Below, piece by piece: positions 1,505-64,000 of a DNA stretch of 64,000 bases. Origin of the DNA: Eledone cirrhosa (taxonomy: Eukaryota). The stretch is from assembly GCA_964016885.1 (NCBI GenBank), contig OZ024743.1, positions 120,280,001 through 120,344,000 of the forward strand, read 5' to 3'. Both the position numbers and the translations under genes were made by a program. Position 1 is the first letter of the stretch, and each line of letters starts with the position of its first letter. Under the pieces are notes generated by a model. It was not told the DNA's origin. It was given only the letters and a program-made list of their open reading frames with translations, and searched no databases.

Positions 1505-1610
1505 GCCCGCTTGTCTGCTTATCTATTTGTGTATCTGCTTGTCTGTCTAACTATGTGTGTATGTATGTGCGTGTGTCTGTCTGTTCTGTGTGCGTGAGTA
1601 TGTATGTATG

Positions 1611-3688
1611 TTCTGGTTGTATAATTTTATAAATGTTTACCAATAGAGAGAGAAATAAATATTCTCCTTTCATTGGAATTTAGATAACATCAACTAGGTA
1701 GATATGTATGCATGTGTATGCAGGTATGGATCTTATTGTATGTGTATGTTTTGAGTTATATGCATGCATGTACTTATGTTTTTTATCTGTACATGTATGC
1801 ATACAGTAATTACATGCAGAATTTTTGGAATGTTTTATATATTTTTACTGTTCCATTAATGGAATGTACTTGTAATTTTCTAAGTAGTCATGTTCCTTCA
1901 GGTTCTGTAAAGCCCAGCTTTTCAAGATTTGTACTGAGGCAGTTACTAACAAATCTCAGTGCCCCAATAATCACAGGTATAAATCTGAAGGCATAGTCAG
2001 GGTGGTGTGTCTGCAGATTCCTCATTAGTTCTGCATAAATATTCTCCTTTTTGCTAATCTTTGTTATTATATTGGCATCTGCTGGGCAGCTAACTTCCAC
2101 TACTGAGCAAGTCTTCTTTTCCTTGACCCATTATACCTGAACTGTTATGCTTGCATTTTATTGAGGTTTTGACTGGAAAATTCCACCAAGTACTTTTTCA
2201 TATTATGTATATGACTTCTACATTGTTGTAACTTTTAATATGTTTATTGTCAGGGTTATCTTTTCTACAGATTGTATTGTATAGTTTTTTGGCCACTATA
2301 TCATGGCTCATAGGTAGATAGTACCGTGATGACATCTTTGGACAGCTGCTTATGGCAAGGGTGACATTTTTTATGTTAATTCTGCAGAATCTGCACTTGT
2401 TGTCACATCTAGGTGTTTTGCCTGCATCCCTATCTCTTTTGTGAATCAGGTATTTTGTATTGATTTCTTGTTCTTGGATTGCAAAAGCATATCCTCAAAG
2501 TTAGAACCAATATAGCGGTTGTTGGTCCAAGATAGATATATTACTCTCACTCTGGAGCTTCCTGACAACATATACATGCATGATTTTTTGATTCACTACA
2601 GTATTGCTAGGCAATTTCCCTGGGTGTGAGTTTTTGATTATCATGCAGGGAGTATCTTTCAGGGAGTTCCTTCCAAACTCTCAAGATTTTATCTGTTTCA
2701 TGTAAATAGACTTGCTCAATAGATGGGCTTGGATGTTCGTAGATATTGTTGGAGGGATATGATGCAACACTCAAATGCTGTCTGGACTGATGTTATGCTT
2801 CTGCCTCTCTGCTTACATTTCAAGTAGAGGCGGTCTATGTCACTGGTGGAAGTTTTCGCTGTTGTTTAGGATTTTTTGGGTTCTAACATCAATATCTCAG
2901 ATTTCGTCTATCGTCCAATGTTGGTGTGAGGACAGGAACAGCAAACACATTGTGAGCCAGTGTTTTATTGTGCGCAGAGATTTATAATAATGATAATAAT
3001 AATGAAATTATTGTGTAAAGTGCTTAGGTGCACTACAACAATAGATGACAATATTTTTCTTAATCGCGTGTAATATTCTCTGTTACGCGTTTCTTGTTAC
3101 AGATACCATCATAGGATATATTCTCATCTATTCCTAGTTATCTGTAGCAGGCCTTGTCAGATATTGGTGAAACAGTTAGGCCATTGATAAAAATGTTGCT
3201 TGACTGGCTTGTAGTTTTTCCCCACTTTACAATCATCTATGAGCATTTATCTTGGACAAACTCTATTCCTATATCCTTTGTGATCATCGTAAACAGGTCA
3301 TTTTTCTTAATCCCATTTATGTTTTAGGCATAGAGTTTCAGGTCATCCACAAAGAACAAATGGGTTAGGTTTGTATTTCTGTCCTCCTGTGAGCCATTTA
3401 TGTATACTTCACATTTCTTGATCAGGAAGGACAAGGGGTTTAATGACAGAATAAATAGTATAAATAGTAGCACAGAGAGACTGTCTCCTTGATCTCTACT
3501 CCTGTGATATTTTATTTTATCAGTGAAAATAGAGACCCCTTTCTCTGTTTTTAACTTCAGGATAGTTGCTTTAGAAAAAGATAGGTTCTCTATGGCTCTG
3601 ATAATAGTGTCTGAGACTTTTTGTCTCAGACAAGTTGGGGGTCCTCTATCATCCAAGAGTGGGGAACAGAATCACATGCTTTTCTGTA
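1611..3688 (-). mobile_element. Decayed R4-like RLE non-LTR retrotransposon, (CATA)n-bounded family, copy 1
   Basis: RT remnant (QGDSLSVLLF...HLFFVDDLKLYA, ORF 3324-3656), CCHC knuckle remnant and RLE remnant (EVSCPADANI...PVIIGAL); internal deletions. Confidence 0.85.
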
Positions 3689-3705
3689 GTATGTATCTAT
3701 GTATG

Positions 3706-4577
3706 TTCTTCTGGTTTTATAATTTCACAAATTGTTGCCAATAGAGAGAGAATGTCGGTTTCTAACATAGATACAAGACTCTCTCATTGGAATTTACATA
3801 ACATCAACTAGGTAGATATGTATGCATGCATGCATGTGTGTGCAGGTATGGATGTTATTGTATGTGTGGATGTGTATGTTTTGAGTTGTATGTCTGCATG
3901 TGCATATGCTTTGTATCTGTACATGTGTATATGCAGTTATTAGATGCAAAATTTTTGGAATGTTTTTACATATTTTTACTGTTCCATTAATGGATTGTAC
4001 TTGTAATTTCCTAACTAGTTGTGTTCTTTCTGTTTCTGCGAAGCGAAGCTTCTCTAGATTTGTATTGAGGCAGTTACTAACATATCCCAGTGTCCCAATA
4101 ATCACAGGCGTGAATCTGAAGGTATAGTCAGAGTGGAATATCTGCAGATTTCTCATTAGTTCTGCATAGGTATTCTCCTTTTCACTAATCCTTGATATAT
4201 TGGCATCTGCTGGGCAGCTAACTTCCACTACTGTGCATGCCTTTTTTTCCCTGCCCCATATCATTATATCTGATCTGTTATGCCTGTATTTTATTGGGTT
4301 TTTACTGGAACATTCCACCAGTACTCTTTCATATTATTTATATGTATGTCTTCCACATCGCCGTAGCTTTTAATGTGTTTATTACTGGGGTTATCTTTTC
4401 TAGAGATTGCATTGTACAGTGGCCACTACATCATGCCTCATAGGTAGATAGTACCGTGATAACATCTTTGGACAGCTGCTTATGACATGGGTGACATCTT
4501 TGATGTTAATTCTGCAGAGTCTGCACTTGTCACATCTAGGTGTTTTGCCTGCATTTCTATCTCTTTTGTGAATCAGG
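3706..4577 (-). mobile_element. R4-like (CATA)n-bounded family, 5'-truncated copy 2
   Basis: CRLC...HVISSC knuckle, RHD motif, and HNRSDIMIW...VEVSCP RLE motif. TATG repeats at both ends. Confidence 0.9.
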
Positions 4578-4754
4578 TATGTATGTATGTAAAACATAAT
4601 TTGGAATTGGAACGCTAACTGGCTCCTTGCTACTCTACTTATTTACTTTTTGGATTACCAAAGGACTCCCTGAATATTTGGATTTTTGAAAACTATAACA
4701 CACACACATTTTTGAAACTATATATATATATATGTGTGTTGTTATACTTTGGAG

Positions 4755-19094: not shown

Positions 19095-21778
19095 GAACAG
19101 TAAGGAACAGTAAGGTGGAGGAGTCAATTAAGGCCAAAAAGCAGGCTTGGAAAGTATGGCGGGATGGGGGAAGTAGAGAAGACTATCAAGTGGCCAGGAG
19201 GGAAGCTAGGAGACAAGTGTACTTTGCAAGAAGGGAAGCAGAGGAAAGAAAGTTCAAGCATGTTCTACAACGTGAGGACCAAAAACGTGAGGTGTTCAGG
19301 ATTGCCAGGCAATGTGTCAAGGAAAACCGTGATATTGTCGGGGAGAAGTGTGTGCTTAATGATGATGGCATACTTGCCATCACCGACGCTGATAAGAAGG
19401 TAGCTTGGAAGTGTCACTACGAAAGGCTTCTAAATGAGGAGAACAAATGGGAGAAAGACAGTCTCCCCCAGATCGATCCAATAGAGGGACCAGCAGTGTT
19501 AGTTGAAGGTAGTATAATAAGTAAGGCAATCAAAGATATGAAGACGGGTAAGGCGGCTGGGCCTTCGGAAATAGTTGCTGAGATGCTGAAGGCATCTGGT
19601 TCGGTGGGACACACCATGGTCACCCGGATAGTTAACCAAGTCGTACAGAATGGGGTTGTTCCGAAGGAATGGCGTAGCAGCATCATCGTTAACTGCTATA
19701 AGGGAAAAGGAGATGCCCTAGATAGGAGTAACTATAGAGGCATTAAATTAATCGACCAGGTCATGAAGGTCACGGAAAAAGTAATAGCGCAACTAATCAG
19801 AGAGAGAATTGATCTAGATGAAATGCAGTTCGGGTTTGTGTCAGGCAAAAGTACCACAGACGCTCTTTTCATTGTACGACAACTACAGGAGAAGTACCTA
19901 GCTAAAAGTAAACCCCTATACTTAGCTTTCGTCGACTTGGAGAAAGCCTTCGACAGAGTCCCCCGTTCCATTATCTGGTGGTCTCTTAGAAAACTAGGTG
20001 TTGACGAATGGCTTGTGAGAGCTATACAAGCCATGTATAAAGAAACAGTCAGTAAGGTTAGAATTAACAACGAATATAGTGAAGAGTTTAGCGTAAAAGT
20101 TGGTGTCCATCAGGGCTCTGTTCTTAGCCCCCTACTATTTATTATTGCCCTTCAGGCTATAACAGAGGAGTTCAAGACCGGCTGCCCATGGGAACTCCTA
20201 TACGCAGATGATCTAACGCTCATAGCTGAATCAATGACCGAACTAGAGAAGAAATTCCAAACATGGAAGCACGGCCTAGAATCAAAAGGCCTTAAAATTA
20301 ACCTGGCTAAGACTAAAGTTCTAGTTTGTAGGAAAGAAAATAAGGCGGCGGTCCCATCTGGGAAATGGCCATGCTCAGTGTGCAGGAAAGGCGTAGGTAG
20401 AAACTCCATTTTATGTCCCAAATGCAAAGTATGGGTGCATAAAAGATGTAATGGGATCACAGGTAAGCTAACTAAGAACATAGATTTTACATGTGGCCGG
20501 TGCTCTGGTGCAATAAGTAGCAGCAAGTGCCCACAAAATACTAGCTCCTTCAACTGCGCAGAGGGTTCTATAGAAATAGTGGACAGCTTCCGTTATCTGG
20601 GTGACAAAATCAGCAGTGGGGGAGGGTGCTCTGAAAGTACAGTAGCTAGAGTCAGAACTGGATGGAAAAAGTTCAGAGAGCTTATACCACTATTAGCCGC
20701 TAGAGGGTTCTCCCTAAAAATGAAAGGCAGGTTATACGATGCCTGCATACGAACAGCAATGCTGCATGGCAGTGAGACCTGGGCATTGTGTGCAGAGGAT
20801 ATACGCAGACTAGAGAGGAACGAAGCTTGCATGCTCCGCTGGATGTGCAATAGTAATATATGTGAACGGCAAAGCATAAACGAACTAAGGAAAAAATTAG
20901 AAATAAGAGGGATCAGATGTTGTTTACTCGAGAGAAGGCTACGTTGGTACGGTCACGTGATGCGCATGAAAGACGACAGCTGTATAACAAAGTGCAGGGC
21001 AATAAAGATAGACGGTAGCCACGGAGTAGGCAGACCCAGAAAAACATGGGACGAGCTGATAAATTCCGACCTCACACGCTTACACCTCTCCAAGACAATG
21101 TCACTGGACCGAGACCTTTGGCGGTACTCAGTAATAGAGAAGACCCGCCTTACCTAAATACAAAGTAAAAACCTACTACAGTCAGTAGGCATCTCTATCA
21201 AAACACCCCCCCGTCCCACCACCTCCACCCCACCCACACCGCCCCTTTCAATGTAAAGTTATGTTGGTCCCACAACATCCAGGCCGAAACAAATGAGATC
21301 GTGTAGGTGTCACGACAAAAAACACACAGTCCACGCTGTAAATGTGGCTGTGTAGGCAACACGGTAAAAACCTCCCAGCCCCACACTGTAAATGTGGTTG
21401 GTGTTAGGAAGGGCATCCAGCTGTAGAAAACCCGCCAGACAGTCCACGCTGTAATGTGGCCGTGTAGGCAACACGGTAAATACCTCCCAGCCCCACACTG
21501 TAAATGTGGTTGGTGTTAGGAAGGGCATCCAGCTGTAGAACACCCGCCAGACAGTCCACGCTGTAATGTGGCCGTGTAGGCAACACGGTAAAAACCTCCC
21601 AGCCCCACACTGTAAATGTGGTTGGTGTTAGGAAGGGCATCCAACTGTAGAAAACTCGCCAGACAGTCCTATGCGAGCAAGACAACCACTCTTGCCTCAA
21701 GTGGGAAAACCCCCGTCCAAACCCATGCAAGCGTGGAACACGGACGCTAAACCTGATGATGATGATGATGATGATGAT
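19095..21778 (+). mobile_element. Young 5'-truncated RTE-clade LINE in TM2D2 intron 3
   Basis: Uninterrupted 680-codon frame with RT motifs (QFGF, FVDLEKAFD, QGSVLSPLLF, YADD) and the RTE C-terminus (RLRWYGHV, GRPRKTW). No endonuclease domain; (TGA)n tail. Confidence 0.95.
21328..21668 (+). repeat. Three tandem 112-113-bp units in the RTE 3' UTR
   Basis: AGTCC unit starts at 21328, 21441 and 21553, and the array closes at 21665. Confidence 0.9.
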
Positions 21779-39820: not shown

Positions 39821-40259
39821 CTTAAATTCAGAAATGATATCACTTGGGATATCAGCCGTTGTATATTTAATAATAAAGCACCCCTATATTTCAACGCATT
39901 GTTCTATATCCTATATTGACTAGTAAATGTCTAATATTCCGAGATCTTGTATTATATTGACTCGTAAATGTCCTAAATTACACGAAGAACAAAATCATAT
40001 ATATTTACAAATTTGTTTATATTACTTTTTGCAATTTTGAAAAGTTGGCAACCTTATATGTAACTAATAAAAACAAATAGAACGAGAGAGTTAGATACGC
40101 AATACATTTACAAGACTGATTTATGGGTACCGAAGTTGGAAACACTATCTATCTGTCTGCTTGTCTGTCTGTCTGCGCAAAATGCAAACAAATAACAAAG
40201 CAAACGACAATACAATGAAGAAATATATTAGTTTTATACTTGATATGTATGTATGTATG

Positions 40260-40755
40260 TTCTTCTGGTTTTATAATTTCACAAATTTCCCCAATAGAGA
40301 AAGAGTCGGTTTCTAACAGATATAAGACTCTCTCATTGGAATCTACACAACATCAACTAGGTAGATATGTCTGCCTGTCTGCATGCATACATGTGTGTGC
40401 AGGTATGGATGTTATTGTATGTGTGGATGTGTATGTTTTGAGTTGTATGTGTGCATATACATATGCTTTGTACCTGTACAAGTGTATATGCAGTTATTAG
40501 ATGCAGAATTTTTGGAATGTTTTACATATTTTTTACTGTTCCATTAATGGATTGTACTTGTAATTTCCTAACTAGTCGTGTTCTTTCTGTTCCTGTGAAG
40601 CCCAGCCTCTCAAGATTTGTATTGAGGCAGTTACTAACATACCCCAGTACTCCAATAATCACAGGTATAAATCTGAAGGTATAGTCAGGGTGGAGTATCT
40701 GCAGATTTCTCATTAGTTCTACATAGGTATTCTCCTTTTCGTTAATCTTTGATAT
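40260..40755 (-). mobile_element. R4-like (CATA)n-bounded family, 5'-truncated copy 3
   Basis: EKENTYVELMRNLQILHPDYTFRFIPVIIGVLGYV and the same 3' UTR as copies 1 and 2; (TATG)n on both sides. Confidence 0.9.
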
Positions 40756-41068
40756 TATGTATGTATGTATGTATGTATGTATGTATGTATGTATGTATGT
40801 ATGTATGTATGTATGTATGTATGTATGTATGTATGTGTGTATGTGTGTGTGTGTGCTTGTGTGTGCGCGCGTGTGTATGTGTGTGTATGTGTATGTATGT
40901 GTGTATGTATGTAGGGAATGGAAAAGGCAATGTTTATGGAACTGGTTTAGATATTCTAAATAGTTATTTTCCTTTATAGCCATCATGGTCTTGCTCATTC
41001 CCCATTGCCATAGGGTCCTACACAAGAGTGTGTTTGTTTGTGTGTGTATGAGAGAGAGCGAGCGAGCG

Positions 41069-45847: not shown

Positions 45848-45985
45848 TGTTTTATGAATAGTATGTCTGTTAGCAACAGAATTAATTATCACTGGTTGTT
45901 GTAATACATTTTAAAAATTATGTATGTATGTATGTATGTATGTATGTATGTATGTATGTATGTATGTATGTATGTATGTATGTAT

Positions 45986-46185
45986 GTGTCAGGTCACCAG
46001 TTGGTGCTACTGGTAACATGTATTCCAGTACAACCCGTCCCATGGTCGGGTCGTTGGCGACTAAACTGGCAACCCTACCAAGGTTTCTTGGTGAGGAGGG
46101 TGACTTTGAACATCCTGCAGGACTAAAAACAAAGCCTGTCAAAGGGCAAAGGAGCTCATAAGGTCAATGGCCATCCAAAATCACC
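45986..46185 (-). repeat. Unclassified ~200-bp interspersed repeat next to (CATA)n, probably a retroelement 3' UTR
   Basis: Paralogues at about 46653-46850 and, inverted, 63805-63923; shared GCTACTGGTAACATGTA.CCAGTACAAC. Confidence 0.7.
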
Positions 46186-46429
46186 GGGAGAGATGACCCC
46201 CTTAGCCTTTGTCAAGGCAGAATTCTAGGAGAAGGAAAACTCTGATATAACACCTGCAACTCTGATGGTATCCAATGATGTTGACTTGTTCTTCTTTTTG
46301 GTAAATATCATCTTGGTTAAGAGAGTGGGACTGGCTTTGTGCAGTGCCTTTGCTGACTATAAAAGCTTCACGGCACAGGCATTGCTTTATATCTGGAGAT
46401 CTCTCTGCACTTGTCATCACAGGGTACAA

Positions 46430-46652
46430 TGGGCCCAGCACTATGTGTCAGTAATTGTCACAAGTGTAGTGTTTGTACCAGAGTTTTCAAGTCGCTGGCT
46501 GGACTAAAAAGTCACACTCGTTCAGCGTATCGATAGGGGTTCTCCTACATGGATATAAAGTAGTGGCCGTACTCGAAAACGAGTTGGCAGCCACCATGTA
46601 TGTATGTATGTATGTATGTATGTATGTATGTATGTATGTATGTATGTATGTA
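46430..46652 (+). mobile_element. 3' end of a BovB-like RTE with C2H2-like finger and (ATGT)n tail
   Basis: CSVCTRVFKSLAGLKSHTRS* matches the end of ORF 62895-63362; terminal GGCC.TAC.CGA.AACGA...GGCAGCCA.C-(ATGT)n as at 63749-63798. Confidence 0.75.
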
Positions 46653-46964
46653 TGGTAGTGTCAGGTGACTTCTGAGTGCTACTGGTAACATGTATCCCAG
46701 TACAACCTGTCACATGGTTGGGCCGCCGGCGACTAAGCTGGCTACCCCACCAAGCTTGCTTGATAAGGAGTGTGACTGGACACTCTGCAGGATGAAAAAC
46801 AAGACCTGACAAAGGGCGGAAAAACTCACTAGAGTCAACGGCCATCCAACAATGTGTATATGTATATACTGTGTGGGTGTATAAATGTATATATGTGGGT
46901 ATATGTGGAATTGGTTGCATGTAAGTGTGTATTTTTATTTACTTATTTTATTATTATTATTATT

Positions 46965-49746
46965 GTTTTTAATTTCTTTCATTATTGTTTCTGAGATATA
47001 TGCCGAGTGTCTTCCCGACACCTAGGGCAAATAAATTCACAGTGTGCATTGGTAAGCCAGTCAATACAGCACATTAATTATAATGAAAAAAAAAAAAAAA
47101 AAAAAAAAAAACCGTATACACATATACACATGTGCATATGCATATGTAAATACAAGGAGGGATATCAATCTTACAGAGATAGTGCTCTTCTCGATACGTG
47201 TGCAGTACCAGTCAAAACAATTTTTTGCACCTCGTGCAGAGAGGGTAAACCAGGAATCATTAGCAAATATTGTTCTGTTCCTTTCTTGATCATTCCCAGT
47301 CCTCCCACAATCACTGGTATTGTAACTGCCTTGAGGTACCACATTTTCTCAATTTCAATAAGCAGATCTTTATAATTTCGTAGTTTGTCAAATTCTTTTG
47401 CCGCGTTATTGTGATCACATGCGATGCTCATATCTATCAATAAACATACCTTATTATGTTGATCGTTTACAATGATGTCAGGTCTATTTGCTTTTATGGT
47501 CCTGTCAGTATGTACAGGAAAGTCCCAGAGAATTATTACTTTTTCTCCTTCAGTTACAGCCTCATGGTGATGATTGTACCACTTGTCTTCAGCTTTGATT
47601 TTGTAATGCCGACATATTACCCAGTGTAGATATTGGCCAACTCTGTCATGTCTATATTTGTATTTTACTGGTGCTAAAATTTACACCCAGAGACTAAGTG
47701 ATTCACTGTTTCAACCTCAGCATTGCAGAATCGGCACTTTGGGTTTATTCGGTTTCTCATCACATTGGCCTAGTAATTACGAGTCAATAAGCTTTGATCT
47801 TGGGCAGCTAAGATGAAGCCTTCACTCTCCGCCTTTAGCCCTGAACTACGTAGCCACTGATGGGTGTGCTTTTGGTCAACATCAGCCTGTTTGCTACGGG
47901 CCACATATTTACATGCAGAGGTTTCTGCTCCCAATTTGATGCTAATTGTCCTTGCCCTTTTGCTTTTGCCAGTGATTTTATGTGCCTAGCAGCATCAGTT
48001 GCAACAGTTTCTTTAGTCTGTCCAGCCTGGGTATCAAGCATGAGATCAGTAGCATATTTTTTGCTTTCCTTCAAGATAGAATGAAGCTTCTTACTTCTTT
48101 CATGCTTTTCAACAAGTTTCAGCATACAGTCATTAGTTGTTTCAAGGTATTTGGCCAGTCCAATGATGGTGGTCTTGTAAACAAGTTCAAATTGGATCAG
48201 GCCACGGCCTCCTTGAGTTCTAGGAAAGTAAAGACGATCCACATCTGCTTTTGTGTGGTGCATCCTATTACAGGTCAGTAGCTTACGGACTTTGGTGTCG
48301 ATTCTTTTGATTTCACTCATATTCCAGTTCAACACACCGAAACTATAAGTGACAACTGGGACTGCCAAAGAATTTATGGCTAGCACCTTGTTACGAGCGT
48401 TTAGTTCATATCTCAGAACTGCACGTACTCTCCTGTAACATTCTTTCCTTATCCTCTCTTTCATACTTGCATGCTGTATGCCAGAGCCCTCATTAATCCC
48501 TAAGTATTTATAGGTTTGTTCCTGCTCAAGTTCCTTTATGATTGTTTCAGCATCCAATTCAACTGAGTCTGAGTTGACAAGCTTCCCCTTCTTGAAAGTG
48601 GCTTTTGCACACTTATCAAGCCCAAAACTCCATCCCGATGTCATCGCTAAACGTGTTTACTGTCTGCAAAAGGCCTTCCAGTTCGTCATTATCTTTGCAA
48701 TATAGCTTCAAATCATCCATATAAAATAGGTGGCTTATTTTTTTTTTGTCAATTCTATAACCGTACCCTGTTCTATTAAATTCGGATGTAAGGTGTATTA
48801 AAGCTATGCAGAAAAGCAAGGGTGAAAGTGAGTCACCCTGGAATATACCACAGTTGATATTTATATTCCTAGAGCACAGTACCCCAGTGGAATGAGACAA
48901 TTGGAGATTTGTGTTCCATAATGACATATTGTGTTTCAGGAAGTTTGAGATCACAGGTGAGATTTTGAAGATGTCCAGTGATTTCAGAATCCATGAGTGT
49001 GCTATGCTGTCAAAGGCTTTTTTATAATCGATCCATCCAGAACTGAGATTTCTGTGTTTATTATGACAGTTCTCAAGGATCATACGATTAATCAAAAGTT
49101 GATCTTTGCAACCATATGAACCTCGTCGGCACCCTTTTTGTTCAATGGGGAAAAGATTGTTCTCCTCCAAAAACACGTATGCTTTTTCCATGAGAATAGA
49201 GGTTAATAGTTTATAAGTGGTGGACAAGCAGGTTATGGGCCGATAGTTTTGGGGATCTTTGGTTTCGTTGTTCTTTGGTAGAAGGTAGATAATGCCACTT
49301 GCTATCCAATCAGGTGTAATTTTTGGATCTTTCATAATTCTATTAAACAGCTTGACCAATATATTGTGAGTGCACAGGAGTAAGGAAATCCAGAAATTTG
49401 GCACCCTGTCTTTACCAGGAAATTTCCATTTATGAGATTTATTGAGTGCTGTCCTTAAGTCCGCTATAGAGATGTCTTCCCATGCCTGTTCTTCTAAATT
49501 TGTGTACGATTTTTCCAGACGACTAATCCAATCTACATTAACATTATATGTCTTCTCATCACTCCAAATCTTACTCCAGAAGTTTTCAACTTCTATATTA
49601 ATTTTTCTTCCCTACTTCTCTATAAAATGGATGAGAACAACTTATTTTGCCTGTAGAAGTTGTTTCGCTTCTCGAATCTACGAATTCGTTGGGCTTTTAC
49701 TTGGACTTTTGTTTCAGAGATTCTTTTGTTGAAACTATTGCTTCTT
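46965..49746 (-). mobile_element. 5'-truncated, frameshifted R4/Dong-like RLE retrotransposon, family B
   Basis: RT (NYRPITCL, EQKGC, WIDYKKAFDS, QGDSLSPLLF, YMDDLKL), GGRGL, CCHC remnant and RLE C-terminus. (TTA)n at 46948-46964 and from 49747. Confidence 0.9.
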
Positions 49747-49780: not shown

Positions 49781-49927
49781 CCTTGAATCTCAGTCATTGA
49801 TGTTGGTTAACTGGAAAGTCCGTTGGATTGAATATCAAGCCACTACCTGCAGCCTCAGATATTCAGGACGTATCGGAGGGTTCTTGCTGTTCCAAGCAAG
49901 CATGCCTTTTGAAGCGTTCCAAAAAGC

Positions 49928-49929
<2 letters not shown>
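49781..49929 (-). mobile_element. R4/Dong-like family A, ~150-bp 3' fragment
   Basis: Nearly identical to 56315-56463; TTA repeats on both sides. Confidence 0.95.
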
Positions 49930-49978: not shown

Positions 49979-51218
49979 CCTTGAATCTCAGTCATTGATG
50001 TTGGTTAACTGGAAAGTCCGTTGGATTGAATATCAAGCCACTACCTGCAGCCTCAGATATTCAGGACGTATCGGAGGGTTCTTGCCGTTCCAAGCAAGCA
50101 TGCCTTTTGAAGCGTTCCAAAAAGCGTGAAGGGGCCGATTTTCTTTAACCATCCCTGGAAACCTTTGGAGATAGTCCCCAGTGCGCCTATGACAATCGGG
50201 ATCACTTTGACTTCATGGCAGTTCCAAATCCTTTTCACCTCCCACTTTAGGTCCTGGTATCGGTTAATTTTCTCCCTCTCCTTCTCTTGCACTCTCGTGT
50301 CGAACGGGCAGGCCACATCCACAATCAGGCACGATCTTTTTTCTTTGTCCACAACCACCAGGTCAGGTCTATTGTGTTCCAGTTTTTTGTCCGTCTGTAT
50401 CCTAAAATCCCACAACACCTTCACCTGACTGTTCTCCATCACCGCCTCTGGCCTATGCTCATACCATTTCTCAGAATGTGGTAGATTGTTTACTTTGCAC
50501 AGGTGCCAGTGGATCACCCTGCCCATCACATCGTGTCTCCAGCCCTTATAGTGGGTCTGGGCTAGGTGTTTACACTCGGACACAATGTGAGCCACAGTCT
50601 CCTCTCTCTCTCCACAGATCCTGCACAGTGGGCTAGCCTCCTCCTTGTAGATATGGTGCTTCAACCACTTCGTTTTGAGGGCCTGCTCCTGCGCAGCCAT
50701 TAGCATTCCTTCTGTAGCCTTTTTGAGGTCTCCTCTTCTCAACCAGTTCCATGTCTGTGGATCTCTAAATTCAGTTTTCTCAAAGAAGGTACTATGAAGG
50801 GATTTTCCCTTAAGGCTGCTCTTCCTCCTTGATGTTATTTCCTCCTTGGGTATCCCCTGGCCTACTGTCCCCTCCTTCAGTACAGCTCTGAGCATTGGCT
50901 CCTTACTATAGGTCACGTATTTGTATAGGTTGTTTTTCTCCATCTGAACACAGTCCTCTATGCTGATAAGACCTCTTCCACCCTCAGATCTCCTTAGGTA
51001 GAGTCTATCGACATCACTCCTCTTGTGGAACATGTTGTAGATAGTCAATAGCTTCCTAGTCTTCCTATCCATTTCTTTTTGTTCAGCAACATTCCATCTC
51101 AGAATTCCCGCACTGTACCTAATAATAGACACAGCTCGGGAATTTACTGCGCTTATGGCATTTCTGCTGTTCAGATGTGACTTCAATACGCTCCTTACTC
51201 TCCGAATGTATTCAGTTC

Positions 51219-51220
<2 letters not shown>
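49979..51220 (-). mobile_element. R4/Dong-like family A, 1.24-kb 5'-truncated copy
   Basis: ORF 50053-51186 differs from the matching part of 56389-57927 at one visible residue (GIPK versus GISK). CRIC..H...C, RHD, PDLVV..DVACP motifs; TTA repeats on both sides. Confidence 0.95.
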
Positions 51221-51254
<34 letters not shown>

Positions 51255-54200
51255 GGCGACCTACGTAGTAAATCGTATCATCGTGAGCTCCGCAAAGGTT
51301 TGTTATTTTCAGTTGTTTAATATTGCCATTCATGGAAAATTTTTATTGTTAACATTGATTTCTGAAAAGGACACTCAAAAATATTGGGGCCTTGAGCCCC
51401 AAATTTAAACTTTTTATAATTATCAAACAAAACTTTTTCTTTAAAAAATAATGGATGACTCAGATTCACTCCTTCCTCACAATCCAACACCTCACACCGA
51501 CACCACAATTGTAAATATTGCTACGTTTGCCAACACTGGAATTGTAAGCAGTAGCAATATTTTAAATTTGTCTCAGGCAGACGTTCATTTCCCGCCATTA
51601 CCAATGACTGCAGGTGTTAAAGCCGCCACCACCACCACCAGCACCGCGACATCCCCCCCCCCCCCCCACCACCACCACAACGACAACAGAAACAAAAGAA
51701 AAAAATAAATTAACTCATGATATCGAAATGAATTCAACCAAAATGAACTCTTCCACACCGAACACCACTGACGCCACCACCACCACAACTGAAACTAAAA
51801 TTAACAATAGCAAAAATAACGATAATATCAACAGCAACAATGAAATTAAGAAAACTACCCTGAGTTTTGCTAGAGTAGCAAAAACGTGCGAAGCGATCCA
51901 GGTAACTCAGGAAGAATTAGACGAAGCCAAAGGAATAGTAAAGAAAGATGGGTACAGGGTCAGCCTCACTCCCCACCCATTTGGTACATGTGTGGGCAAA
52001 AAAAACCCCACATCAGACGTAGGCAGAAGTATGGAACCGTGGATGTGTTCTTTGAAACACCAGAGGAGGCCAGAGAACACTCCATGGCCCCATTAAGAAG
52101 TGACGACTTCACACTCGTCCCAAGCTATTGTGGCCAGAGACTCGTGAAGATCAAGGTGACCCACGTTCCACCGGCCATCGAAATTCCCTGGCTAATGGCT
52201 GCCGTCCTCGCCGGCATCGAGGCCAACACCAAAATAATAGAAATAGCAAAAGAAAAGCAGGAGAACTGGTCCGGATCTGGGTTGGAGCTCCTGATCCAAG
52301 CGGACGATAAAAGCATTGAGGAGATCCCAGAGGTAATAGACCTCACTGATGGCAGCCACCTCACCGTAATCGTCGGGGGCAGAAGACCTAGGTGTGTCGT
52401 TTGTGGTGAAGGAACCCACCTAAGGGCTTTCTACCCTCAGGCTAAAAGGTTGAGGCCACCTCTCTTACCCACCCCAGTGACTCAACCATCAACACCACTA
52501 GCAGCAGAAATAGCAGCAACAACTGTAGCAGCAACAACAGAAGCAACTGTAACAGCAACAACCCCACCAACAGTAGCAAAACCAACACCACCACCACACA
52601 ACGCCCCAGAACTAGCACCAGCGCCTACACCATCCACCACGCCACAACCAAAACCAACGCCTGTGGAGGATTTTACACTCCCCGGCTTATCGCAACTGGA
52701 GACAGATTGTGACGACGAGGAGTGGGAAACGGTATCAGGAAAAAAGAAAAAAAAAAAGAAACCAAAAAAAGAAAAAAAATCTCTTCCTTCCCCCTCAAAA
52801 AACAAAATACAGAGGGAAACAAATAAATTATCGAACAAGAAAGTTAAGACAGATATGCCACCATCCACACCAGCATCATCAACCCCATCACCACAAACAT
52901 CAACACCATCACCATCATTAACCCCAACACCACCATCACCAACACCACAAAAGTCACCAAAAAGCGTAACAGAAACAAACCCACAACAAACGCAAACAAA
53001 ACAAAACAACCAAAACGATACACACTACACAGCATTAAATTTGAACAACAAGCAATTATTGCACTACATGCAACACAACACCAGCATCACAGAAAAAGAC
53101 TACATAACAACCCCAAAGTTCACACCACCTCCACACATACAAATCACTCGCATCACACAGAAAACGTACACGACACTAAAACAAAAATTCCCCAAAGATA
53201 TCGGAGACTTCCGACAAACACTCTCCAGGAGGAATTATAAGGACATCCTTCCGGAGGAGGCCACAAGCAGTGAAAAGGATGGACAAACCATCCTTCCTCT
53301 ACGAGAAGTAAGGTAAGTGGTTTTTCCCATCTTTTCCACTCCATTTCAACATGACCTCACTCAGAATAGGCAGCATAAATGCGCGTGGTTGGGGTCGCCA
53401 TGGAAGCAGGGCCACCTGCTCAACGACCACAGGTCACTAAACATAGATGTAGTGGCCATCAGCGAAACCAGAATCTCCGAAGCACGGGCCTTCTCACCGA
53501 TCTTCGGCGGCTACGATGTGTACGCATCTCCCAGCCGTCCGGGATCGGGTGGGGTGGGGGTGGGGTGGGGGTGGGGGTGGAGGGGGGAGGGGGGAGGAAT
53601 TGCTGTGCTTTTTCGGAGAGGTTTGGATTTCGCCATACGGGCCATCTTCCTGGACCCAGAAGGTAAGTTGGTGGTGCTAGACGTGACCAGCGGAGACGGG
53701 CAAGCTATCAGGCTAGTGGCCGTCTATGCCCCGACAGGAGCAGGGCGGCCTGATTTCTTCCGGCGTCTGGAGACCTTTCTTGGAACGTCCCGCTCTTTAG
53801 TGTTAGTGGGCGACTGGAACGGGATCTTAGATGCACGCTGGGACTGTGTGGGATTAGCGGATAGGGGAGGAGGGTGCAAGAGCCTCACCAACCTGCTCAG
53901 GCGTTTTGAACTGTCTGACAGGTACCGATTGGATTTCCCGAATGTGCCAATGTGGACTCGGACAAATCGCATAGGGTCATCCAGATCATATCTAGATAGA
54001 GTATTTTGTAGAGAAATAGATAGGTCTAGGATAGGCTGTCCACAATTCAAGATAGTCAGCTACACGGACCAATAGAGCAGAGGGAGAATTAGTTAGAAAA
54101 TTAGACGAGGCGCTTAGCAAAGGCATCGCGACCGACGTACTTGCGGCGAAATTGGCCCTTGACCAATTCTTCAATGCAAAGCACGAAGGCTGCGTTGTCA

Positions 54201-56030
54201 GAGCTAGGGTGCGTGCTCTCAGACACGAGGGAACGAAAGCCGTTCAATAGGCCCGAGTGGCGGAGGCGCGTCGTGGAAACAAAGCCACGATCCGGTCTTT
54301 GGTTGACCACGACGGGCGCATGCTACTCGATCCCGGGCAAATGTGTGAAGCTTTTCAGCGACACTTCCCTCAGTTGTTCGGGGGCAGCGGCGGGCTGGAT
54401 CGTGGGATGGACTTTAGTGTCTACCTCGACGGACTGCCCCGGCTCTTGGCCACTTGGCCAAACACATCAAGGTGATCGGCACTACACTAAGAGAATACGA
54501 AGCGGTGACAGGAGCAATGATCAGCCAGGAAAAGTCAGTGGGCCTGCAGCTCGGCACCTGGAGAGGCAGGTCCATGCCGTCCAACAGCGTCGTCGGGCGC
54601 TGGACGGAGGGACCAGTTAAATTGCTCGAGGTCTGGTTCGGTCCGCATCTCCAGACGGACAAAAACTGGGACGAGGTGACGAGCCGGGTGGCTTCTCTCA
54701 CCCAGAAATGGGCTGAGAGGAAGCTATCCCTGAAAGGTCGAGCGGAGGTGGCTAATGCGTATATCGCGTCCGTCATCTACTACCGCCTGACCATCGTACC
54801 TTGTCCTAAGCCCCGCCTGACTGCGCGGGAGCGTTTGCTCTTTCGCTTTTTGTGGAAGGGACGCGCTCCGATGGTCAGGCGGTCCATCTGCTGTCAACAC
54901 CCGCTACGTGGAGGGCTGGGAATGCCGTGGCTGATGATGCGCAGACACGCGCTCAGGCTACGACATCTCCACCTCTTCCTCGACGGCGATCAGGTGTGGT
55001 CTCCGTTTGCTAGACGCGTCTTTCCCCAGCTCATCTCCTCGACGGAGCTGCAGTCCTGGGTCAAGCGAAGACCGAGAGAGAGCGCTTGGAGACTGGAATG
55101 TCTTCAGGCGCTCACAGCCCTCGACCAATCGGGCAATGTGATCGGTGGAAACTCCACCTTGGCGTTCTAAAGAGGATTAGTGGAGGGGAAGAGCGACGAC
55201 ATACTTGGGAAAACTCTAGGCGTCGACGAAAATCAATTAGCTAATCTCTTCGGAAGAACTTTCGGGCTGGGGCCTATGGACAACTTCCAGAAATCCCTGA
55301 CCTGGAAGTGCTACCGAGGAGCTTTGCCAGTTCGGGATAAACTATACAGGCATGGAGGTGCCGTCTGCCGGGCATGTCCGAGATGCGCGCAGGGCGACGA
55401 AACCGTCCTGCACGCACTCGTCCAGTGTCCGAGCATTGCTGACTTGAGGGTTTATGTCGAACACCTGCTGTCGCGTGTAGGACGGATCCAGCTATCAGCT
55501 GAGTCCATCGTGAGGATTGCCCCGCCCTCTTCCTTTAGCCGGGAAGGGCAGGCAGTTTTTATCTGTCTGGTGGCCATGGCGAAAGAGATAGTATGGTGGA
55601 CACGTTTGAAAGGGCTGAAGACGAGCACTTACCTCTTCGGTGATGCCCTGATTAACTTTTTCAAATTTCATTTAAAAAGGAAAATCAGGGTAGAAAGGGA
55701 AGTGCTCTCTTCCCAGCATTTTGTTGAAAGATGGGTGAGAGAGGCAAGAATAGCCCGAGTGAATGGGCCTACTCTGAGTATGTGTCTGTAAATTAAAAGT
55801 GGAACACTGGGAGAGGGCACTTGCCCTGGTGGTCAGGGTCACTGTGGCTTTTTAATGGGGATGTCCCTCGGAAGTCTCCCCCCTATTGGGGAATTTTTTC
55901 ATTGTTCTATTATTACATCCTCTGTTTCTTGTTTTTTACACGCAGAAATGCCCATTTGTACCGTCCTGTATTGTCCTGTACTGTCCTTAATGTCTACTTT
56001 ATGTAAACCCTTGTGGTTAATAAAGAAATC
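51255..56030 (+). mobile_element. Tx1/L1-clade LINE with both ends retained but the RT core deleted
   Basis: Frameshifted ORF1 (51451-53316; T/P-rich, degenerate CxxC...H knuckle). ORF2 starts at about 53351 with an APE endonuclease (GSINARG, SETR, VYAP, GDWN, YLDR, YTD). C-terminus has GGLGMP and CPRC..ETVLHALVQC, ending at 55791. No YADD. Confidence 0.9.
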
Positions 56031-56258
56031 ATTATTACATCCTGTGTTTCTTGTTTTTTACACGCAGAAATGCCCATTTGTACCGCCCTGTATTGTCCTG
56101 TACTGTCCTTAATGTCTACTTTATGTAAACCCTTGTGTTTAATAAAGAAAGCCTTATTATTGCCATTGTGCACTTTTACTCGACCTTATTGTAAACCCCC
56201 ACTGTCCCTGTCTTTTTATTGTCCCCTACATGTCGGCCCTTGTGGCTAATAAATGAAA

Positions 56259-56260
<2 letters not shown>
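56031..56260 (+). mobile_element. Two additional short Tx1 3'-end copies in tandem
   Basis: Termini CCCTTGTG..AATAAA(T)GAAA at about 56150 and 56260, each followed by (T/A)TTATT. Confidence 0.75.
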
Positions 56261-56302
<42 letters not shown>

Positions 56303-56314
56303 GTTATTGTTATT

Positions 56315-59300
56315 CCTTGAATCTCAGTCATTGATGTTGGTTAACTGGAAAGTCCGTTGGATTGAATATCAAGCCACTACCTGCAGCTTCAGATATTCAG
56401 GACGTATCGGAGGGTTCTTGCCGTTCCAAGCAAGCATGCCTTTTGAAGCGTTCCAAAAAGCGTGAAGGGGCCGATTTTCTTTAACCATCCCTGGAAACCT
56501 TTGGAGATAGTCCCCAGTGCGCCTATGACAATCGGGATCACTTTGACTTCATGGCAGTTCCAAATCCTTTTCACCTCCCACTTTAGGTCCTGGTATCGGT
56601 TAATTTTCTCCCTCTCCTTCTCTTGCACTCTCGTGTCGAACGGGCAGGCCACATCCACAATCAGGCACGATCTTTTTTCTTTGTCCACAACCACCAGGTC
56701 AGGTCTATTGTGTTCCAGTTTTTTGTCCGTCTGTATCCTAAAATCCCACAGCACCTTCACCTGACTGTTCTCCATCACCGCCTCTGGCCTATGCTCATAC
56801 CATTTCTCAGAATGTGGTAGATTGTTTACTTTGCACAGGTGCCAGTGGATCACCCTGCCCATCACATCGTGTCTCCAGCCCTTATAGTGGGTCTGGGCTA
56901 GGTGTTTACACTCGGACACAATGTGAGCCACAGTCTCCTCTCTCTCTCCACAGATCCTGCACAGTGGGCTAGCCTCCTCCTTGTAGATATGGTGCTTCAA
57001 CCACTTCGTTTTGAGGGCCTGCTCCTGCGCAGCCATTAGCATTCCTTCTGTAGCCTTTTTGAGGTCTCCTCTTCTCAACCAGTTCCATGTCTGTGGATCT
57101 CTAAATTCAGTTTTCTCAAAGAAGGTACTATGAAGGGATTTTCCCTTAAGGCTGCTCTTCCTCCTTGATGTTATTTCCTCCTTGGATATCCCCTGGCCTA
57201 CTGTCCCCTCCTTCAGTACAGCTCTGAGCATTGGCTCCTTACTATAGGTCACGTATTTGTATAGGTTGTTTTTCTCCATCTGAACACAGTCCTCTATGCT
57301 GATAAGACCCCTTCCACCCTCAGATCTCCTTAGGTAGAGTCTATCGACATCACTCCTCTTGTGGAACATGTTGTAGATAGTCAATAGCTTCCTAGTCTTC
57401 CTATCCATTTCTTTTTGTTCAGCAACATTCCATCTCAGAATTCCCGCACTGTACCTAATAATAGACACAGCTCGGGAATTTACTGCGCTTATGGCATTTC
57501 TGCTGTTCAGATGTGACTTCAATACGCTCCTTACTCTCCGAATGTATTCAGTTCTTAACAATTCCTTCATTTTTTTGTTCTTTATGCCATCAGCCTCCAG
57601 AACGCCCAAATACTTGTATCCTTCCTCAGAGTCAATATCCTTTATCATCTCACCTGTTGGTATCTGGATCCCGTTACTTCTGCTCAACCTACCCCTCCTC
57701 ATCACAATGACTCCACATTTACCAATACCAAACTGCATACATATATCACTGCTGAAAATACGGACAGTGTCAACAAGCACATCCAACTCCTTCTCACTTT
57801 TCCCGAAGAGCTTAAGATCGTCCATGAAGAGGAGGTGATTGATGGTAAGCTCTCCCCTTCCCAACTTGTATCCTGCTCTCACTTTTCGCAGCATAATGGT
57901 CAAGGGCATCAGGGCAAGGACAAACAACAGAGGGGACAGGCTATCTCCCTGGAAGATACCTCTCTTTTGATCTTCACGCTTCCCAAGGATACTCCAGTTG
58001 ATGTCAACTCTGTCTCCCAGGACCCCATACTCCTGCCCAGCAACTGTCTGATGTTATCTGCCACCCTGAAGATCTCCAGGCTTTTGGTGATCCAGGAATG
58101 AGGCACCATGTCAAATGCCTTTCTGTAGTCTATCCATCCCATGGCAAGATCAGTGTGTCTCCTCCTGCAATTCCCCATTACCATCTTATCAATAAGCAAC
58201 TGGTCCTTTGTACCACGTGACTTCTTTCGGCATCCTTTCTGTTCGTCCGGCAACAAGTTGTTTGTGTGGAGGTGATGGTAGATTTCCTCAGACACAATGC
58301 TCGTCAACAGTTTCCACATTACGGGCAGACATGTGATAGGTCTATAGTTGGTAACATCATTACCCTTGATTCGGTCTTTCATTATCAGAACTGTGGTACC
58401 TTTTGTCAACCACTCTGGCACCTCACCCGACACCAAGCAGTCATTGAACATGGCCGTCAGCTTCGGGTGGAGGGATGTTAAATGTTTAATCCAATACCCC
58501 TGCACACCATCTGGGCCTGGTGATTTCCAGTTGGTTAGTTTTTTGGCTTGCCCCTTAAGAGTTTCAACTGTGATACTCAAATCAGTCTGTTGTTGTGCCT
58601 GCTCACCGATCTCCCTCTGTACTGTCTCAATCCACCCTGCCTGGGCATTGTGTCTAACATCCTGCTCCCATATTCCTCTCCAGAATGTTTTAGCTTGTTC
58701 CGCCCCAGGGATCAAGTCGTTGCCTCTTTCTTTCCCCTCAAGCTGTCCAAACAGCATCTTCTGGTTGTTGTCGAACATGCGGTTCTGTTTATACTGACTG
58801 ACTCTGTTCTCGTATCGCCTGATTTTGGCACTCTTTGCTACAATGCGTTGCTTCAATTCCTCTATGATAATATTTAGCTTTTTACTCCTAGTTTTGTATT
58901 TTATTTCCAGTCTATTTTTAGTGCCTATGTTTTTTAGTGTCCCATTCAGTAGTGACTCAAGCTTTCCTATGTCATTTCTCATTTCCCCGATTTGCCCACT
59001 CAGTCACTTCTTCCACCACGGCTCTGCTCTTTCTTGTCTGTTGTTTCCTCTCGCTTTTATACCAAGTAGTTTCCTCACCGTATTTGCTGTTGCTTTGAGG
59101 ATATTGTTGCACTGGTGAAGACTCCTCGCCTCAAGGTATGGGATGACTTTGTTTACCTTAGCTGTTGTTTCTTTTAACTTTTTCCTGTCTACAAATCTTA
59201 GGTTCATAGGTCTCCCACTATCATTGTTCAACTCATCTACCACTAAATTTAGGATGTCAACCGAATCTTGTCCTAGCCCGTCAGCATTCATCTCCTCAGT

Positions 59301-61185
59301 GGCCGTATCTCTGTTCCAGGTATTATTTATCTCAGTATTCAGATCATTGTCTGCTTCGGGTGGTTCCTCCGTTCTCAGGACCTCCTCACCTTCATTTCCC
59401 GCCGGCTCGCTTGTCTGGCATACTACACCCGCCATCTCCAAGCCATTCTCTCTGCTCAGTTCCTCCAGTTCCAGCTCGCTTATCCACCCATTAGTTCTTA
59501 TTACCCGAGCCTGACCGGCCAATTTTTGTTCATCTAATTTAAATAAACCAATCTCGTTCCAGATGTTATGCATCCGTCTCCTGTAGCCCCTCTCCTTGGG
59601 GTTACTTTTCAGGTAGCATTGCATAACAGTTCTATTCAATTCTTTCGTCCAGTTGGTTCTGGCCCCTTTCCTTCTTCTTCTTCCTCCAACATCAGCAGTA
59701 TTTGGTTGACAGTCAGGTTCCTGCTGCTGAGCCAGGGGGCACCTGTTGGGTGAGAGTCTGTCACATGACGTTCTAGTCTCCATTTCACCGTTATTCGAAC
59801 TGTTTATGTTCGATATTTAAACACTCTTATCGAGGATTGGCGAATGTATGTTTACATAGCCATCTGTGGATCCGCCATCCCACTTGGCCCTTGTGTGGCA
59901 TTATCACCACGCTGTATACGGACACACATAAAAAAACAAACACACGGGCAGAAAGGGCCCCAAAAATGAATAAGCATAAGTTTCATTGTAATGTAGTATT
60001 CGAATGTCTGACTTAGTTTTTGTTTTTTAAGTTTTACTTTTTCCCCCCTCTTCTTCTCTGTCCGTCCGCCTGCTTCTCTCTTCATTCTTATTTTCTTTAC
60101 GTTTTTGGGGTTTCTTTTTTTGTTTTTGTTTTTCTCTGTTTGTTTTTCTCGTTTTTTGCTGTTGTTGCTGTGCTGCTGTGGTTTTGTTGTTTGTTTTTTC
60201 TTTTTTCTTTTGAGTCTATCTATATATTTTGATGCCTTCCTCTTTGTTAGTAGTAGGAATTCTATAATGTGGAAGTGGCAGCCAGCAGAGACTGGCGGCG
60301 TTGGCGATACTGAGACAGTGGTGGTGGTGATGTCGATACCGAGGCAGTGGTGGCGGTGATGCGACCGTATTACTGTAGTGATGGTGCTGTAGCGGTGGCA
60401 GCAGCAGTGAAGGAGTCAAGGGGTGGTGGCGGCGGTGATGGGATAGTGGTGGTAATGATGGCCGCAGTGAGCGGTGGCGGTGAAGGTGAAAATGCTGTTG
60501 TGTTTAGTGTACACAGATGATGGGGTGGGTGGTGTATCTAGTTTCTGGTGTTGGTGAGTTTAGCTGTCCTATATAGTGTAGCCAGAGGAGAGGAGGGGGG
60601 GGGGTTCTTCTTCTTCCATTTATAGCCATTTTATTTTTTTTTTTTTTTGGATATACAGTGTACAATACAAAGTTGAATATTTGAATATTTGAGCCGTATT
60701 ACTGTAGTGATGGTGCTGTAGCGGTGGCAGCAGCAGTGAAGGAGTCAAGGGGTGGTGGCGGCGGCGATGGGATAGTGGTGGTAATGATGGCCGTAGTGAG
60801 CGGTGGCGGTGAAGGTGAAAATGCTGTTGTGTTTAGTGTACACAGATGATGGGGTGGGTGGTGTATCTAGTTTCTGGTGTTGGTGAGTTTAGCTGTCCTA
60901 TATAGTGTAGCCAGAGGAGAGGAGGGGGGGGGGGGGGGTTCTTCTTCTTCCATTTATAGCCATTTTTTTTTTTGGATATACAGTGTACAATACAAAGTTG
61001 AATATTTGAATATTTGAGTCTTATACCAATATATTTTGGGTCCGAATTTTTTTGGGCTCAAGCCGGGTGCTTTACGTAGCATTTGTACTAAGAGTTGTTA
61101 TTTCACAAATGATTTAAATATGTTAAAAATTCAAAACTTACGGGAGCGATTTCATGACCTCCGTCACCTCGTGCGTCTTCTTCCC
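56315..61185 (-). mobile_element. Apparently full-length R4/Dong-like RLE retrotransposon, family A
   Basis: ORFs 59004-59783, 57909-58982 and 56389-57927 join into one ~1130-aa protein (R4-type N-terminal WT..N..YRRRM..EQKLA.Q motif, RT with FMDD, CCHC, PD-D RLE). It is broken by one in-frame TGA and one 2-bp slip; (TTA)n on both sides. Confidence 0.95.
60365..61018. repeat. Tandem duplication of about 327 bp in the R4 5' region
   Basis: Units 60365-60693 and 60694-61018 are near-identical apart from homopolymer lengths. Confidence 0.95.
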
Positions 61186-61359: not shown

Positions 61360-63798
<2,439 letters not shown>

Positions 63799-64000
63799 TT
63801 TTTTATTTCACAGGATGTCCAAAATCACCCTCCTCAACAACCAAGCTTGGTGGGGTTGCCGGTTTAGTCGCTGACAATCCGACCATGCACATGTTGTACT
63901 GGGTTACATGTTACCAGTAGTGCGTAAATTCAATGACTATCCCCCAAACTTTTTTTTTTGTGGACCGAGAGACCCCTAGTCTTCATTAAGACATCTCTCT

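Follow-up and report, generated by a model that had tools for sequence, protein, structure and literature searches.

A (CATA)n-bounded retrotransposon family of probable R4/Dong affinity in Eledone cirrhosa, and its relatives ending in (CATA)n or (CTTA)n

Retrotransposon copies in the window

The window analysed here is a 64,000-nt stretch of Eledone cirrhosa DNA (contig OZ024743.1, forward-strand positions 120,280,001 to 120,344,000), in which self-BLAST finds exactly three copies of one repeat family. All three lie on the minus strand and share one 3′ terminus, followed by (CATA)n, and each is 5′-truncated at a different point. Copy 1 (1611–3690) is a decayed element, recognized by tblastn to relatives and by motif reading. 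It retains reverse transcriptase (RT) motifs at 3653–3688, 3474–3491 and 3330–3353, a degenerate CCHC knuckle at 2342–2395, remnants of a restriction-like endonuclease (RLE) at 1957–2326, a stop codon at about 1810–1812 and a 3′ UTR at 1611–1809. Copy 2 (3706–4580) has an intact CCHC (4472–4525), the RLE motifs RHD (4430–4456), HNRSD (4268–4282) and EVSCPAD (4205–4225), a stop at about 3940–3942 and a 3′ UTR at 3706–3939. Copy 3 (40260–40758) consists of the RLE end and the 3′ UTR, a region that measures ∼200–235 nt in the window family.

Positions 1599–2460 (copy 1) align with 3698–4588 (copy 2) at 82% identity, and 3690–4198 (copy 2) with 40244–40755 (copy 3) at 90%. Over 454 shared columns copy 1 has 47 private differences, as against 16 each in copies 2 and 3. 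An earlier reading of the sequence alone (the sequence-only reading) had described three minus-strand copies with a common 3′ terminus, truncated at different points, the first two in tandem; self-BLAST agrees, the three truncation points are distinct, and copies 1 and 2 stand in tandem across a 15-nt spacer (3691–3705). The 3′ ends that it gave also stand, but the 5′ boundaries lie 2–3 nt further out (at 3690, 4580 and 40758), because element and repeat have letters in common there.

Copy 1 is interrupted by a 63-bp foreign insert (2981–3043), the TAA-rich end of another abundant repeat. The joint 2980–3044, skipping the insert, is present in contigs of three public sequencing runs (X1, X2 and X4), with loose ends at 3039, and loose ends that continue the repeat behind the insert occur in all four public runs.

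These four runs, from two coded organisms (X2 and X4 being one sample), were compared with the window at 80% likeness. They contain the family in high copy number, with 28,241, 18,237 and 18,851 contigs and 456,533 reads matched. Dispersal at high copy number with a common 3′ end and variable 5′ truncation is a trait of non-LTR retrotransposons. Beyond the 3′ end a TATG repeat follows in 104 (X2) and 110 (X4) contigs of the one sample, with agreement of about 0.5. Family sequence runs on beyond 3690 in 29 contigs of X2. The 5′ junctions of the individual copies do not appear among the 24 loose-end rows inspected of 6,809. A joint 1702–3698, which X2 and X4 each show in a single contig, may be another tandem; with 27 letters on its short side and one sample behind it, it was set aside.

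CATA runs at the junctions

Repeats of the CATA class, read on the minus strand, are present at all five distinct junction runs of the three copies. At the 3′ end of copy 1 a (CATA)3 run (1599–1610) forms the edge of a degenerate compound microsatellite (1434–1610), and contigs and reads of the public runs extend the repeat at 1597. An imperfect 15-nt CATA run (3691–3705) serves both as the tail of copy 2 and as the flank on the 5′ side of copy 1. At its own 5′ junction copy 2 has (CATA)3.5 (4577–4590), whose first 4 nt are common with the element. Copy 3 ends in (CATA)4 (40244–40259), and its 5′ junction (40756–40913) is a perfect (CATA)20 (40756–40835) decaying into a CA-rich array. The sequence-only reading had placed (CATA)n at both ends of all three copies, and the repeat is indeed found at every junction; the bounding runs are not all independent, however, there being five and not six, with 3691–3705 doing double duty.

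The letters common to element and repeat at the 5′ junctions can be read directly: GT in copy 1 (3689–3690), GTAT in copy 2 and TAT in copy 3. As a chance estimate we counted the window positions that begin a 10-nt TATG-phase run with at most one mismatch. There are 339 such positions among about 64,000 (0.53%), and 177 (0.29%) outside the family loci. The chance that both independent 5′ junctions (copies 2 and 3) meet such a run is then ∼3e-5, a post hoc figure because the window was picked for the pattern. Of the perfect CATA-class runs of at least 12 nt in the window, all eight are found at, or close to, an end either of a family copy or of a second repeat that is non-coding; elements making runs would fit this also, so that they may build the runs as well. 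The 5′ run of copy 3, the 3′ run of copy 1 and the tail of a metagenomic relative (L003, below) grade into degenerate compound microsatellites, which is what one would expect if host arrays were there earlier.

The second repeat is a 608-bp non-coding unit (45988–46595) bounded by (TATG)17 and (ATGT)15. Another partial copy is stacked behind the first (45919–46896), and fragments lie at 63780–63920 and 61513–61669. At either end, folding is better on the minus strand (z −3.5 and −3.2). Neither a protein match nor a link to the RTE element of the window was found, and the unit may be non-autonomous, using the same CATA-class repeat as the family.

Coding identity

Pfam families are found in none of the six stop-masked minus-strand frames of copies 1 and 2, and in a word-indexed protein search with the copy 2 RLE none of 71 candidates scored. 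Coding identity comes from tblastn with intact relatives. Against copy 1 the relatives match from mid-RT to the stop (E 1e-91, 27–58% identity by piece), and against copy 2 at 40–43% identity. A phmmer search with the last 129 residues of copy 2 returns 423 relatives, in clusters that include proteins of 1130–1161 aa. The motif order in copies 1 and 2 is RT, CCHC knuckle and then the RLE motifs RHD, HNR(P/S)D and EVSCPAD; two full-length metagenomic relatives (L001 and L006) carry RT, CCHC and a PD-(D/E) RLE intact in one ORF. RVT_1 is found in database relatives (Pfam scans of five), an Atlas search returns RVT_1 clusters only, and L006 matches solved R2 proteins over the RT region at E 2e-21. 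The RT, CCHC and RLE remnants and the tblastn relatives agree with the R4-like RLE identity that the sequence-only reading had proposed.

Two other assignments were considered and rejected. Membership in R2 is opposed by the lack of a zinc-finger motif in the full-length relatives and of rRNA in the flanks; membership in Waldo, of the R1 clade, by the lack of an APE family in the Pfam scans of five relatives and by the C-terminal RLE motifs. The (TAA)n insertion trait of Dong proper is not seen either: the window copies have CATA at their junctions and the relatives have CATA or CTTA, apart from one ambiguous (AAT)n contig start (L004, below).

Relatives in metagenomes

A metagenome scan with a lineage motif matched 26 stretches, of which six loci (L001–L006) were confirmed; the same pattern gave no confirmed locus among 21 matches in viral contigs or nine in prokaryote genomes. 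L006 is full-length and its ORF encodes 1161 aa; the element begins with (CATA)19 and ends with ∼17 CATA units, on the same strand as in the window copies. L001 has a 1157-aa ORF and begins with (CTTA)14, and on its 3′ side the 830 nt that follow the stop contain no repeat. A (CTTA)n tail is present in L004 and in L002 and L003, which are one family at 99% identity. In L005 the element is broken off by unrelated sequence. The contig of L004 begins in (AAT)16 rather than CTTA; this lies in frame as poly-Asn at the N-terminal linker position, and we take it to be the poly-Asn of the linker, though a TAA flank is possible.

Tetranucleotide runs stand at six of the 12 contig ends, which amount to five independent family-ends in four families, and are to be read with the caveat that assemblers favour contig ends in repeats. 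Three of the 12 ends begin inside the ORF. Since L001–L005 have neighbouring assembly numbers, they may come from one host, and the CTTA evidence with them. The association with CATA at both ends, as first proposed, is strengthened by L006 and by the relatives with (CTTA)n tails; the proposal of a single family should be widened to what appears to be a lineage.

Phylogeny

A search with the full-length relative P0164 returns about 50 proteins at 39–57% identity, after which identity drops to 30–35%. The FastTree phylogeny has 120 rows, made up of 111 of 128 database proteins spanning RT to RLE, eight window or locus rows, and as outgroup the RTE-like frame of the window; L003, L005 and copy 3, being either duplicates or too short, are not among the rows. 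Copies 1 and 2 fall with L001, L002, L004, L006 and an Argonauta hians family in a 32-row branch (support 100), nested in a 47-row branch (support 100). In an IQ-TREE phylogeny of 45 hand-picked rows, the window copies and relatives form a 17-row branch with an SH-aLRT of 100. Outside the branch lie two TAA-bounded families of the window (A and B, below) and unnamed Bombyx and Euphydryas proteins. Within it, CATA and CTTA users are interleaved in both trees.

The tree rows include no verified Dong, R4, NeSL or Hero reference and the RTE outgroup is a very long branch, so that on these sequence comparisons the CATA/CTTA branch, which stands as a distinct one among R4/Dong-like proteins, likely belongs to the R4/Dong group. 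With so unreliable a root, we claim no order of change between TAA and tetranucleotide use. A search with family A gave no named Dong or R4 protein among the 120 matches listed.

The frame that served as outgroup lies on the plus strand (about 19100–21450); it is an open frame of 687 aa with an RTE-like RT, and a 112-bp tandem repeat and (TGA)n are nearby.

N-terminal domain and RNA features

The N-terminal domain is missing from the truncated window copies and was read from L006, whose first 100 residues are predicted to form three helices (mean pLDDT 83). This model has no Foldseek match at E ≤ 0.001. Its VIA structural neighbours are mostly Myb/SANT-type DNA-binding domains at a weak Z of 5–6, the best (Z 6.2, rmsd 2.4, 64 aligned) falling below the tool's trust line. 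A C2H2 motif was not found in a consensus of 33 rows. The predicted three-helix N-terminus would fit the reported Myb-like domain of R4/Dong elements, a resemblance that is weak on its own.

Rfam at gathering score gives no RNA family, HDV-like ribozyme included, in the window or in five of the six loci. Compared with shuffles, the 5′ ends of L001 and L006 do not fold better (z −1.5 and −1.1, pseudoknots excluded), nor do the 3′ termini of copies 2 and 3 (z −1.2 and −0.7). The window 3′ UTRs have no significant DNA similarity to the six loci; as the best E is only 0.05, we make no claim for the apparent resemblance of their last 30 nt to L006. L001 (3921–4284) and L006 (4095–4383) have long 3′ UTRs with internal direct repeats, of 140 bp at 93% and of about 70-bp units at 72%, respectively. 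L002 (2663–2797) and L004 (4022–4161) have in common a 141-nt 3′ terminal segment at 81%, their ORFs being only 67% alike; this segment is a candidate RNA recognition element.

TAA-bounded neighbours and other elements of the window

Two further RT-RLE families on the minus strand, separate from the CATA family, can serve as an internal control. Between 46930 and 51254, R4/Dong-like families B and A form a head-to-tail stack with a TAA run at every junction: one copy of B (about 46965–49745) and two truncated copies of A (148 bp at 49781–49928 and 1.24 kb at 49979–51219). A near full-length copy of A follows at 56261–59816, its TAA tail at 56261–56314. Identity of the CATA family to family A is 24–34% in aligned pieces. 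With A and B stacked in TAA, the CATA family has the same anatomy as its Dong-type neighbours, with another repeat.

The 1.24-kb piece of A is 99.7% identical to the near full-length copy 6 kb away, which indicates that family A moved recently. An apparently L1/Tx1-like element on the plus strand (51255–56260) lies between the TAA runs 51220–51254 and 56261–56314; it has ORF pieces at 51874–55791, one with endonuclease-like motifs recognized by eye, and short pieces resembling its 3′ end occur at about 1136–1435, with an ATCT run at their end. A SINE-like repeat of 180 bp is present in three tandem copies at 419–964, with at least six more dispersed in the window.

Proposed mechanism of insertion

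We consider it probable that the window copies are dead, 5′-truncated copies of a single-ORF element with RT and RLE from the R4/Dong group, a group member that inserts into pre-existing (CATA)n and whose branch-mates end in (CATA)n or (CTTA)n. By analogy with R2 and Dong, a CATA run would be nicked by the protein, probably through its N-terminal Myb-like helices together with the RLE, and reverse transcription would be primed at the nick from the 3′ end of the RNA. Reverse transcription would often end early, its product joining the far side of the run through the 2–4 common bases. Repeat would thereby be left at both ends, so that old junctions become new targets and copies stack, as copy 2 does against copy 1; copy 2 would have arrived later, at the 5′ run of copy 1. 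The 47 against 16 private differences fit two separate insertions at one run, and would equally fit copy 1 being of a separate subfamily. What is seen of the 5′ side of junctions comes from the three window copies (two of them independent) and the two full-length relatives, with no empty site among them; the runs would have been there before the copies.

The tandem of copies 1 and 2 might instead be a single event, in which the RT, having left a truncated template, went on to another RNA at its 3′ end; the 5′ run of copy 1 would then be the tail of copy 2, and uninformative on targeting. Template jumping is known for R2, and the spacer of 15 nt is all that separates the two copies. We find this improbable, since copy 1 is ∼3 times more diverged than copy 2, unless it is of a separate subfamily, and since a template jump would not account for the CATA runs on the 5′ side of copies 2 and 3. 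The family might also have no target preference at all: the element would carry a CATA tail, and its 5′ runs would have arisen later by slippage from the 2–4-nt seeds or through the RT adding tail-derived repeats. A 2–4-nt seed seldom expands, and such a rare expansion would be needed in three of three copies; L006 and L001 are moreover full-length, with long runs ahead of an untruncated 5′ end, the TAA families repeat the pattern with their own repeat, and the 5′ array of copy 3 is about 158 nt long with a degenerate far end. For these reasons we think a lack of preference very unlikely, even though a seed common with the element stands at each 5′ junction, the 5′ run of copy 2 is just 14 nt with unique sequence beyond, and RTE elements are described as creating microsatellites at their 3′ ends (PMC2887409).

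A further explanation has the same outcome as the preferred one, insertion into CATA, from a different cause. Here the nuclease would be loosely specific, nicking at many places, and only sites pairing with the (CAUA)n tail of the RNA would prime, placing the preference in the RNA tail. Every copy does have a CATA tail, the apparently unrelated non-coding repeat at 45988–46595 is bounded by the same repeat, and the interleaving of CATA and CTTA users in one branch implies that switching may be easy. Such passive targeting nonetheless seems rather unlikely to us: RLE elements are mostly target-specific (PMC4640811), and the branch keeps its predicted N-terminal three-helix domain with Myb/SANT-like, if weak, neighbours, a domain of the kind argued to guide Dong insertion (PMC7998251).

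Comparison with known systems

Dong targets TAA (PMC3812793, PMC7998251) and Waldo targets ACAY microsatellites (PMC3812793), in agreement with the background given in the sequence-only reading. The Dong elements (Bombyx mori Dong, DongAg, DongBg and ostracod Dong) resemble the CATA family in their single ORF with RT and C-terminal RLE, in predicted N-terminal Myb/SANT-like helices, and in microsatellite insertion with repeat at both ends (PMC7998251, PMC3812793). They differ in the repeat, which is (TAA)n in Dong and (CATA)n or (CTTA)n here, and the CATA/CTTA proteins form a branch of their own; window families A and B fit the TAA type. Nematode R4 has the same domain plan (PMC7998251), whereas its target is rDNA, and Rfam gives no RNA family in the window or in five of the six metagenomic loci. 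WaldoAg1/2 and WaldoFs1 resemble the CATA family in target, since (CATA)n is (ACAT)n in another phase and ACAY is theirs (PMC3812793), but Waldo uses an APE endonuclease where the CATA element has a C-terminal RLE in one ORF; a target common to Waldo and the CATA lineage would be convergence. Togen (NeSL-related, (TG)n-specific) and the microsatellite-specific Hero families are likewise RLE-bearing and microsatellite-targeting (PMC4640811), and are set apart, by description and not by sequence, as other clades with other repeats.

In Octopus vulgaris, 51 Dong-R4 consensus families make up 92.7 Mb (PMC13282606, supplement). The accessible part of that paper describes no target for them. An Argonauta hians family falls within the CATA/CTTA branch. 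In the literature full text available to us, a search beyond which Repbase and Dfam lie, no R4/Dong element with a CATA or CTTA target was found. We tentatively suggest, as a possibility that could well fail, an unnamed, old and widespread R4/Dong branch specialized on tetranucleotide repeats, with switching between (CATA)n and (CTTA)n inside it and convergence with the ACAY target of Waldo.

Significance

The microsatellite target known in the R4 clade is TAA, and the class of mechanism itself is not new. If the proposed branch is real, the intact L001 and L006 would be a natural one-base specificity series for RLE target choice: with intact proteins in pairs that differ by one target base, one could learn which of the three, Myb-like domain, endonuclease or RNA tail, does the choosing, a question that bears on R2-based tools for RNA-templated gene insertion. 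A CATA/CTTA sister branch beside TAA users in one genome would mean that related retrotransposons partition their targets. A further suggestion is that, in these hosts, microsatellite markers of the CATA type frequently lie at retrotransposon ends.
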